The notes below the pieces were generated by a model, which worked only from the letters and a program-made list of their open reading frames with translations, was not told where the DNA came from and did no database searches. A stretch of 64,000 bases of DNA from Planctomycetota bacterium. GTDB lineage: Bacteria > Planctomycetota > JAZDJP01. The translations under genes were made by a program, and so were the position numbers. Of the stretch, positions 13,316-14,434 are shown piece by piece. The DNA is taken from assembly GCA_043803805.1 (NCBI GenBank), contig JAZDJP010000056.1, positions 11,680 through 75,679 on the forward strand, in the 5' to 3' direction. Position 1 is the first letter of the stretch, and each line of letters begins with the position of its first letter.

Positions 13316-14434
13316 ATGTTAAAAGTGATTGGTGCAATTACGGGAATCTTGGTACTGGTGGTCTTGTTGATTGGCTATTTTCTATGGCCTCTTCGACAAG
13401 GTGAGGAATCTACGCCGGGGGTAACGCCGCCCGTAACCGAAGCGTCGACCTCGGTAACAAAACCGGTTTCCACTCCAGTCATGGCAAAGACGTCTTCGCT
13501 TCCGAATGGCCCATTCGTAAAGACGCCCGGATCGGAAAAACTGCTGGCGGGGCCGACGACGGGGATCAAGCCGGAGAAACGATCGACGATTGTCGTGGAC
13601 GATAATGGAAATGTGGCGATTAATATGTGGGGGCGCGTGGTAGATGAAATGGATCAGCCCATCCCAAGCGTCATGGTTCATTTTTCCGTGCGCGGAAACA
13701 AAACAATGGTTCCTCCATTTGAGGATACGATGACCAAACGGGATATGGTCACGGGTGCGGATGGGCGATTCGAGATTCGAGGGGTATGGGGAAGAATTGG
13801 TGGTTTTGAGATATCCAAGGAGGGTTACGAATTATCGAAGAAGGCCAACATCTCCTACAATTTCACGATGTCCGATGATGTGCCTCCAACCAGTCCCGAC
13901 AATCCCCTGATTGTCCGGATGTGGAAGAAACGGGGGGCGGAGTATATGAAGCACAAGGACCATTACATTTATCCGGCCGCGCGAGTGAAACATGGGGAGC
14001 CATTGTTGTTTAATCTTGGGGATTGTGAAAAAGTGAAGGAAGGCGGAGACCTTCGGATCGTATTGGATCGAAATCCACGCCAATTGACGGCGGATCATAA
14101 GCAATACGATTGGTGGTATGAAATCGAAGTGACAAACGGAGGGGGACTGATTGAAAGCAAGGACGAGTTTATGAATCTGGCTCCCGGTGAAGGGTATGTG
14201 CAACGGATAACGATGGAAATGAAGAAGGATAAACCGGAATGGCGTTCGGATACAACGAGGGACTATTATGTGAGTTTTCGGAATGCCAGCATGTTTGGGC
14301 GATTGAGAGTAACTCTTACAGGCGGTGGACTTGGACAGATCGAAATGTGGACCAACCCCTCCGGCTCCCGGAACCTGGAATACGACCCGGCGGTGCAGGA
14401 TGCACACGCGACGGCGATGCGGGGGCGACCGTAA
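13316..14434 (+). CDS. hypothetical membrane-anchored protein (N-terminal TM helix, S/T/P-rich linker, globular domain); low GC
   Basis: The ATG directly abuts the upstream TGA (tgattgaATG). MLKVIGAITGILVLVVLLIGYFLW is a TM anchor. A linker PGVTPPVTEASTSVTKPVSTP follows. GC is about 50% versus about 68% for the locus. I recognise no family. Confidence 0.6.
   Translation: MLKVIGAITGILVLVVLLIGYFLWPLRQGEESTPGVTPPVTEASTSVTKPVSTPVMAKTSSLPNGPFVKTPGSEKLLAGPTTGIKPEKRSTIVVDDNGNVAINMWGRVVDEMDQPIPSVMVHFSVRGNKTMVPPFEDTMTKRDMVTGADGRFEIRGVWGRIGGFEISKEGYELSKKANISYNFTMSDDVPPTSPDNPLIVRMWKKRGAEYMKHKDHYIYPAARVKHGEPLLFNLGDCEKVKEGGDLRIVLDRNPRQLTADHKQYDWWYEIEVTNGGGLIESKDEFMNLAPGEGYVQRITMEMKKDKPEWRSDTTRDYYVSFRNASMFGRLRVTLTGGGLGQIEMWTNPSGSRNLEYDPAVQDAHATAMRGRP

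Follow-up and report, generated by a model that had tools for sequence, protein, structure and literature searches.

The open reading frame (ORF) at positions 13316-14434 of a 64,000-nucleotide stretch of a Planctomycetota contig (JAZDJP010000056.1), the whole of which is termed the window here, on balance probably encodes the cognate immunity protein, i.e. the inhibitor, of a hydrolase module whose coding sequence is just upstream. From comparative genomics the two, referred to below as the hydrolase and its partner, likely constitute a new effector-immunity family; both protein families are uncharacterised. An effector-immunity pair had been suggested in the first-pass annotation of the window, and this idea gains from the linkage, gene arrays, orphan genes and co-variation found among relatives, while the pair falls within neither Tle-Tli nor any named immunity family.

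Linkage of partner and hydrolase

Relatives of the partner are numerous. Word-indexed searching gave 166 matches (the best non-self match being at 1.2e-73), and of 1.84 billion cluster representatives 2311 were matched in a profile search at E<=1e-30. GTDB species representatives encode a relative at 221 places, almost all in Verrucomicrobiota, where the groups concerned are Opitutales, Limisphaerales, Chthoniobacterales and Pedosphaera. The existence of these homologs settles that the ORF is coding, on the plus strand. Linkage was counted in 80 of the 221 GTDB loci together with four earlier loci, all annotated with profiles of both proteins. They contain 124 partner genes, eight of which are at a contig end and not assessable. 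Of the remaining 116, 73 are directly behind a full hydrolase domain, 27 are behind another partner in an array that is led by a hydrolase, eight are behind a hydrolase fragment and eight, with at least 1.8 kb of upstream sequence present, are orphans. The first-pass annotation had named homologs without any hydrolase-bearing gene upstream as evidence that would count against pairing; by these counts the outcome is largely in favour of the pairing.

Viewed from the other side, all 74 full hydrolase genes have at least one downstream partner (one in 54, two in 15, three in four and four in one), with the proviso that the loci were found via the partner, so that counts from partner to hydrolase are unbiased and those from hydrolase to partner come partly from the same loci. 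A search seeded with the hydrolase, in which homologs were picked only for their long contigs, had the partner directly downstream in 4/4 loci. The spacing is tight: in 43 of 67 pairs the partner start overlaps the hydrolase stop by 4 nt (ATGA), and in 66 of the 67 the gap is 20 nt or less. In the window the gap is 0 nt. The upstream stop (TGA, 13313-13315) abuts the partner ATG at 13316 in the same frame, in the context ggt gat TGA ATG, just as had been noted earlier.

Such data bear on whether the ORF might be a chance neighbour or a mis-called ORF, i.e. something non-functional or horizontally acquired with no tie to the gene upstream. That its third-position G+C (GC3, 0.57) is atypical for the genome and that the upstream gene is frameshifted could be cited in favour. 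Against it are the 2311 cluster representatives, a confident structural model and an adjacency conserved across Verrucomicrobiota and Planctomycetota, and with the family homologs and the linkage counts (73/116; 74/74) the proposal is refuted, to the point where we give it next to no credence.

Divergent arrays, orphans and remnants

Co-variation of the ORF with the hydrolase, suggested in the first-pass annotation as something to look for, is evident. Over 65 pairs, identity between hydrolases correlates with identity between their adjacent partners (r=0.635; Mantel test 0/2000), with the partner diverging faster (mean identity 0.28 vs 0.35 for the hydrolase). Two pairs inside one locus diverge like pairs between genomes, with the hydrolases at 0.28-0.51 and the partners at 0.24-0.32. 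Arrays provide a finer view. Twenty hydrolases are followed by two to four divergent partner paralogs, whose identity within an array is mostly 0.21-0.36 (mean 0.36), and across these 20 arrays hydrolase identity follows that of the partner next to it (r=0.717; 0/5000 permutations) and not that of the second one (r=-0.103). In 14 of the 20, the second copy has its closer relative in a first-position partner from a different genome, not in the copy beside it.

The orphan partners are intact (243-297 bits), though they were scored on contigs of metagenome-assembled genomes (MAGs), where a hydrolase elsewhere in the same genome is possible. A complementary type of example is the survival of a partner behind what is left of a hydrolase. 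At one such locus (L042:8067-11023) the ORF upstream of an intact partner (304 bits) has kept the domain that normally precedes the hydrolase (the pre-domain, dealt with below), including VDANHDG...FWVND, and has lost the hydrolase core, profile position 12-27 directly adjoining 280-304. At another locus with an orphan (L024), neighbouring ORFs of the same size were considered as extra partners and rejected as spurious reading frames of high-GC sequence.

Separate from these is an 884-amino-acid protein (P0294) in which a partner-like domain directly follows a signal peptide and Big_7-like Ig repeats resembling the stalk encoded in the window. A transmembrane (TM) helix is lacking and its version of the C-terminal motif described below is degenerate (NNAGATNLEYN). 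Its candidacy as a hydrolase-partner fusion was rejected, as it is an Ig stalk plus partner-like domain without a hydrolase; a deletion or faulty assembly may have given rise to it.

Arrays of divergent paralogs, orphans and toxin remnants together form what, judged from sequence comparison, is the classic signature of immunity genes. By analogy, the pattern would be that known from polymorphic toxin and type VI secretion system (T6SS) loci, with a cognate protector beside the toxin, acquired non-cognate ones behind it, and protectors outliving the toxin. Taken with the co-variation, it is hard to reconcile with a role purely in folding or in anchoring.

Folding merits attention nevertheless, as the main rival to immunity is that the partner is a Lif-like chaperone, activator or export helper that folds, holds, activates or hands over the hydrolase, and that maybe inhibits it too. 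In Pseudomonas, Burkholderia and Acinetobacter the gene after lipA encodes a Lif protein (LipB/LipH), which is alpha-helical and strictly one per lipase. The layout of the window pair matches that of lipA-lif, a gene for a lipase-like protein being followed immediately by one for a protein of ~350 amino acids with an N-terminal anchor, a flexible Pro-rich linker and a periplasmic domain. Strict pairing (74/74) and the overlap of stop and start are consistent with translational coupling of a helper, and the invariant motif of the partner fits a conserved mechanistic contact. Furthermore, the Foldseek matches of a modelled hydrolase homolog (P0123), weak at E ~1e-3, include Pseudomonas LipA and the Acinetobacter LipA:LipB lipase-foldase complex, beside cutinases/PETases and CALB. 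However, the window partner has no Pfam match to Lipase_chap (the Lif family) at E<=0.1 and is modelled as all-beta at residues 100-347, unlike the helical Lif. In place of one foldase per lipase there are the 20 arrays of two to four divergent paralogs, in which only the first copy co-varies with the hydrolase, the eight orphans and the eight partners behind hydrolase fragments; a pure folding aid would hardly be expected to stand alone or to persist where its hydrolase has been deleted or truncated. A helper or activator therefore seems unlikely to us, albeit with one caveat from the effectors themselves: a preprint (bioRxiv 10.1101/2023.03.28.534661) reports that an Enterobacter T6SS Tli not only neutralises its Tle but also activates it.

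A constant module behind variable N-termini

What is conserved between loci is a unit of pre-domain, hydrolase and partner, and it is with the hydrolase module that the adjacency is maintained across Verrucomicrobiota and Planctomycetota. The region before the pre-domain varies from 45 to >2700 amino acids and contains unrelated domains (He_PIG/fn3, TSP3, RCC1, Laminin_G, Ig). The first four contexts already had one C-terminal module behind unrelated N-termini (He_PIG/fn3, TSP3, RCC1 and none), and short proteins, consisting of the hydrolase alone or of pre-domain plus hydrolase, are still paired with a partner.

This bears on a structural alternative, where the partner would be a periplasm-spanning tether, a receptor or a fibre part for the giant protein, and the hydrolase a nutrient-acquiring esterase. 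A long flexible tether and Ig/transthyretin-like beta-sandwiches are typical of envelope scaffolds (pilins, SusC N-terminal domains), the N-termini of the hydrolase proteins are adhesin-like (Ig, fn3, He_PIG, TSP3, RCC1), glycoside hydrolases are abundant in the window, and near the pair, in the 35 products scanned of window 1-55.3 kb, no secretion or killing apparatus is encoded. Set against this, the partner co-varies with the hydrolase module, the N-termini that it would anchor are unrelated between loci, and proteins lacking any such N-terminus retain it; the arrays, the orphans and an AT-shifted, cassette-like composition better fit conflict genes. An anchoring role is accordingly judged quite improbable.

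The partner protein

The sole hydrophobic segment of the partner is formed by residues 1-29 (mean hydropathy 2.4-2.7). Family N-termini follow a pattern of M-K-K-R, ~20 hydrophobic residues and WWLW, and from this pattern a signal anchor is predicted, which would place most of the protein beyond the cytoplasmic membrane. The structure modelled by AlphaFold2 from 68 homologs (mean predicted local distance difference test score, pLDDT, 85.2, with >90 in the folded part; predicted template modelling score, pTM, 0.72) consists of a helix at 2-27, disorder at 29-92, an all-beta part at 100-347 and a short C-terminal helix. The earlier picture of a protein with a single TM segment, tethered by a linker and exposed on the secreted face, is thereby borne out as a prediction, and the modelled topology would suit a periplasmic protector. 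The tether is rich in Thr, Pro and Ser (11, 10 and 8 of 65 residues, respectively) and poorly conserved (0.17-0.30).

The first of the two beta-sandwiches carries a conserved I-x-F-Y-G-R-V-V-D motif. Its match to CarboxypepD_reg (PF13620; residues 105-178) is weak in the window partner, 23.3 bits being below the 32.3 cut-off, and passes that cut-off in homologs such as P0053, P0062 and P0030 (42-45 bits, with P0053 at 44.5). The statement in the first-pass annotation that there is no recognisable family is accordingly right in part only. Foldseek relates this domain to the teneurin transthyretin domain, intradiol dioxygenases and the SusC N-terminal extension domain. The second sandwich has GGLIE and AP-x-x-GY motifs, with G276, A289, P290 and Y294 invariant, and searches of Pfam, NCBIfam, PADLOC and the PDB gave no counterpart for it. 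For the partner as a whole, Foldseek against the PDB gave generic beta-sandwich matches only, a PDB sequence search gave nothing useful, and the PADLOC defence-system scan nothing significant.

An extreme in conservation is the C-terminal motif, NPSGSRNLEYD (residues 347-357), which apart from residues 101-110 is the most conserved block of the partner. Over 68 sequences with 22-38% identity to the window partner, N347, S351, R352, N353, L354 and E355 do not vary, and for P348 and G350 conservation is at least 90%. The motif is a candidate for the site of hydrolase contact, but it could alternatively be a catalytic site or a sorting signal. It has no counterpart in Pfam, NCBIfam, PADLOC or the PDB.

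The upstream gene and its frameshift

The product of the upstream gene comprises, in order, a signal-peptide-like N-terminus (from M21), Ig-like repeats (Big_7, 2.8e-24; Big_13, 2e-9), the pre-domain and an alpha/beta hydrolase. For the N-terminal 920 amino acids of the stalk the homologs are repeat-level only, besides an identical NCBI entry. The first-pass annotation had recognised a hydrolase module here; that identification stands, with DUF900 as the family after correction, but the module as assembled is split between two frames at a run of six Gs just before the AHSHG nucleophile elbow. Addition of one G to the run yields a continuous frame of 1528 amino acids counted from 8730, to whose residues 981-1526 the profile of alignment A3 matches at E 5e-150. 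The DUF900 match (PF05990; 29.4 bits vs a cut-off of 20.5, profile positions 17-119 of 232) is obtained with the frameshift-corrected sequence only, and neither of the two uncorrected pieces gave a Pfam match to DUF900. The join is seamless at the profile level, positions 4-93 of the hydrolase hidden Markov model (HMM) being in one frame and 92-302 in the other.

An error of assembly or of sequencing probably accounts for the frameshift. An independent Logan assembly of the same organism (L092, SRR27925880) is 99.9% identical over window positions 12627-14594 (L092:1-1966) and differs by two deletions of 1 nt in G runs, at ~13932-13937 and 14580-14582 of the window, the former of which splits the partner there into ORFs of 210 and 162 amino acids. 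Homopolymer errors are therefore common in these data, and the shift in the G6 run is probably an artefact for this reason, the independent assembly itself beginning at 12627, 23 nt past reach of the site. An NCBI protein from a Planctomycetota MAG (P0346) is 100% identical to the upstream product and, at 1343 amino acids, stops at the frameshift-induced stop. If the frameshift were real, the toxin gene would be a pseudogene beside an intact partner.

The pre-domain (~220-250 amino acids, with a D-x-D-x-D-G...F-W-V-N-D-D motif) is present in 63 of 73 hydrolase ORFs. It has no Pfam match, and in BLAST it aligns with the corresponding part of four giant homologs at 27-31% identity. In the AlphaFold2 model of the hydrolase homolog P0123 (pLDDT 90.1, pTM 0.90) it packs against the alpha/beta hydrolase. 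At the elbow, the His preceding the nucleophile Ser and the Gly of AHSxG are invariant in 51 homologs, and the Ser itself is at least 90% conserved. No sequence relatives of the hydrolase were found in the PDB. Most likely the enzyme is a lipase, phospholipase or esterase that would have the cell envelope as its target. The coordinates of all these features are given in Table 1.

Table 1. Features of the hydrolase-partner locus, in window coordinates
Feature	Position	Strand	Basis or remark
Giant exported protein, ~1508 amino acids from M21 after restoring one G	8790..13315	+	ORFs 8730..12821 and 12494..13315
Conserved beta-rich pre-domain	11670..12329	+	Profile, BLAST, homolog model; precedes hydrolase in most homologs
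DUF900-type alpha/beta hydrolase domain	12330..13312	+	Pfam on frameshift-corrected sequence
G6 homopolymer, 1-nt frame shift in hydrolase (LNRLNAGG / YSGKIRILAHSHGN)	12599..12604	+	Sequence, HMM
Candidate catalytic Ser in AHSHG (motif 12629-12643)	12635-12637	+	Conservation, 51 homologs
Candidate catalytic Asp in KKDYAL	12926-12928	+	Invariant, 51 homologs
Candidate catalytic His in GHSGQF	13235-13237	+	At least 90% conserved, 51 homologs
Partner gene, candidate cognate immunity protein, 372 amino acids plus stop	13316..14434	+	ATG start
Signal-anchor TM helix, residues 2-27	13319..13396	+	Hydropathy, AlphaFold2, family N-termini; predicted N-in/C-out
Disordered Thr/Pro/Ser-rich tether, residues 28-92	13397..13591	+	pLDDT 37-48
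Transthyretin-like (CarboxypepD_reg-type) beta-sandwich, residues ~97-205	13604..13930	+	Weak Pfam match, Foldseek
Second beta-sandwich, family-specific, residues ~210-347	13943..14356	+	pLDDT 88-98
C-terminal motif N-P-S-G-S-R-N-L-E-Y-D, residues 347-357	14354..14386	+	Conservation in 68 homologs

Base composition and surroundings

The partner ORF has a GC content of 0.514 and a GC3 of 0.566, compared with 0.679 and 0.667 (GC3 0.80-0.82) for the genes on either side, ETF-alpha and purA, and with a window mean of 0.626. The figure of about 50%, at 15-18 points below the locus, given in the first-pass annotation is thus close for the gene itself and for its neighbours, which are 15-16 points higher, and too large with respect to the window mean, from which the difference is 11. 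The low-GC tract starts at ~11400-11700, within the upstream gene, whose C-terminal module is at 0.575-0.588 vs 0.639 for its N-terminal part, and the coincidence of this drop with the start of the module hints at cassette exchange. Of 47 related loci (L003-L085), 45 have a partner with less GC than its flanks; over the 47 the difference averages -8.1 points for the partner and -5.5 points for the hydrolase. Low GC is hence a trait of the cassette family as a whole and not a local anomaly. It fits with a mobile accessory cassette, but as the family is AT-shifted everywhere, the earlier argument, that foreign composition at this locus is a hallmark of toxin and partner, is weakened even though the low GC on which it drew is real.

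The pair lies among housekeeping genes, with ETF to one side of it and purA, uppS, cdsA and phoH to the other, and glycoside hydrolases (fucosidase, rhamnosidase, GH123) are plentiful in the window. No second copy of partner or hydrolase was found when sought in the window. T6SS components (VgrG, Hcp, PAAR, adaptor) are absent from the 35 window products scanned (1-55.3 kb) and from the called genes of loci L001, L003, L005, L006 and L088-L091.

Comparison with known systems

T6SS Tle-Tli pairs, of a lipase effector and a periplasmic immunity protein, were reportedly classified by Russell et al. in 2013. In common with them, the window pair has an alpha/beta hydrolase with a nucleophile-elbow Ser (AHSHG, an AxSxG variant of the GxSxG-type motif) and, as the next gene, one for a predicted periplasm-exposed protein, with tandem immunity paralogs and co-inheritance of the pair. 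In contrast to them, the effector is the C-terminus of a giant Ig-repeat protein with a Sec signal, the partner is all-beta and TM-tethered, and the hydrolase matches DUF900 rather than the Tle Pfam families such as DUF2235. With DUF900 as the sole Pfam match and no Tle structure in the top 50 Foldseek matches, nothing places it in Tle1-5, and in Pfam, NCBIfam and PADLOC the partner matches no Tli or Imm model.

With polymorphic toxins the likeness is in architecture, an N-terminal export signal, a repeat stalk and a C-terminal toxin module being followed by an immunity gene (the functions of toxin and immunity being inferred for the window pair), and it extends to polyimmunity arrays, orphan immunity genes, toxin remnants and a conserved region at the start of the toxin module. 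A difference is that here the same type of toxin is behind many different N-terminal regions. A Pfam scan of window proteins revealed no RHS or filamentous-haemagglutinin repeats and no pre-toxin domains of HINT/PT type. Tox-ABhydrolase-1/2/3 C-terminal domains, and Imm-SUKH, Imm66 and Imm69, are in the catalogue of Zhang et al. 2012 (PMC3482391), which includes no hydrolase of DUF900 type and no membrane-tethered immunity protein with a transthyretin-like fold.

A different type of comparison is with Cinquedea of Haloferax larsenii (bioRxiv 10.64898/2026.06.10.730825), a secreted bactericidal phospholipase with an alpha/beta hydrolase fold, 69% of whose homologs are DUF900. The likeness is that of a secreted alpha/beta hydrolase in the same Pfam neighbourhood as that of the window, and Cinquedea is a precedent for the killing of bacteria by enzymes of such a type. 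Unlike the window hydrolase, it comes from an archaeon, is encoded by a single-gene unit for which no partner is reported, and is devoid of a giant N-terminal stalk. Literature searches on DUF900, on CarboxypepD_reg immunity proteins and on Verrucomicrobia toxins turned up no description of the pair, which resembles a Tle-Tli or polymorphic-toxin cassette in its working, yet is outside every named effector or immunity family.

Proposed mode of action

If the partner is an immunity protein, the following course of events would be expected. The upstream gene would give rise to a Sec-exported giant with a signal peptide, an Ig-repeat stalk and a module of ~550 amino acids composed of the pre-domain and a DUF900-type Ser-Asp-His hydrolase. 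Since stop and start abut or overlap, the partner would be translated in step with the hydrolase. It would insert in the cytoplasmic membrane with its N-terminus inside, and a tether of ~65 residues would hold the two beta-sandwiches in the periplasm, where they would bind and neutralise the hydrolase domain. Protection would cover the producer's own enzyme in transit as well as matching enzymes from neighbouring cells, and the extra divergent and stand-alone partners would protect against the hydrolase variants of other strains. A more ambitious version is a hitherto undescribed, T6SS-independent system of antagonism between bacteria of the PVC superphylum (Planctomycetota, Verrucomicrobiota and relatives), with a lipase toxin at the tip of giant Sec-exported surface fibres that differ greatly in length and make-up, neutralised via the NPSGSRNLEYD loop of a new, tethered two-beta-sandwich class of immunity protein, the partner perhaps also being an export-licensing holder or activator. 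As a whole this version is offered tentatively, and we lean against it in its full form.

Several points weigh against immunity. Searches with the partner hit no known immunity family or structure, and the toxicity of the hydrolase subfamily is putative, as are the binding and inhibition ascribed to the partner from comparative genomics, in which the pairing seen from the hydrolase side and the scoring of orphans have the qualifications given above. Genes for secretion systems (T6SS; type V and type I, T5SS and T1SS) were not found among the window products scanned, and in the present assembly the hydrolase gene is frameshifted. Immunity proteins normally diversify at the interface with their target, and an invariant motif in a family with 25% identity is unusual for them; such a motif would also fit an enzymatic, chaperone or sorting function.

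Other observations in the window

Some features of the window lie outside the pair. A minus-strand ORF of 127 amino acids (40082-40465) has a GC3 of 0.54 vs ~0.8 for the genome, is Lys/Arg-rich and without a Pfam match at 1e-5; it may be another horizontally acquired gene. A second minus-strand ORF (55415-56479, 354 amino acids, GC3 0.59) has an Arg/His/Gly-rich translation and looks non-coding, and something else may be encoded between the transketolase gene and the one that follows it. The start of the window (2-5083, minus strand) encodes a bacterial alpha-2-macroglobulin-like protein (MG2, MG3, A2M bait region) of >1694 amino acids that extends past the window start, and two adjacent WD40 proteins of ~880 amino acids are specified by 48131-53425.

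Significance

Verrucomicrobiota and Planctomycetota are abundant in soil, water and the gut, and to our knowledge almost nothing is known of competition between them. The two-gene cassette is widespread and has the genomic hallmarks of a toxin-immunity system, while matching no catalogued effector or immunity family. The partner family can act as a marker for locating such loci, and its invariant motif is a defined target for mutagenesis. If the immunity interpretation is true, the pair would represent a new lipase-type effector family together with a structurally new immunity family, and would raise the question of how a Sec-exported giant delivers its hydrolase to a neighbouring cell without a T6SS or a two-partner system.

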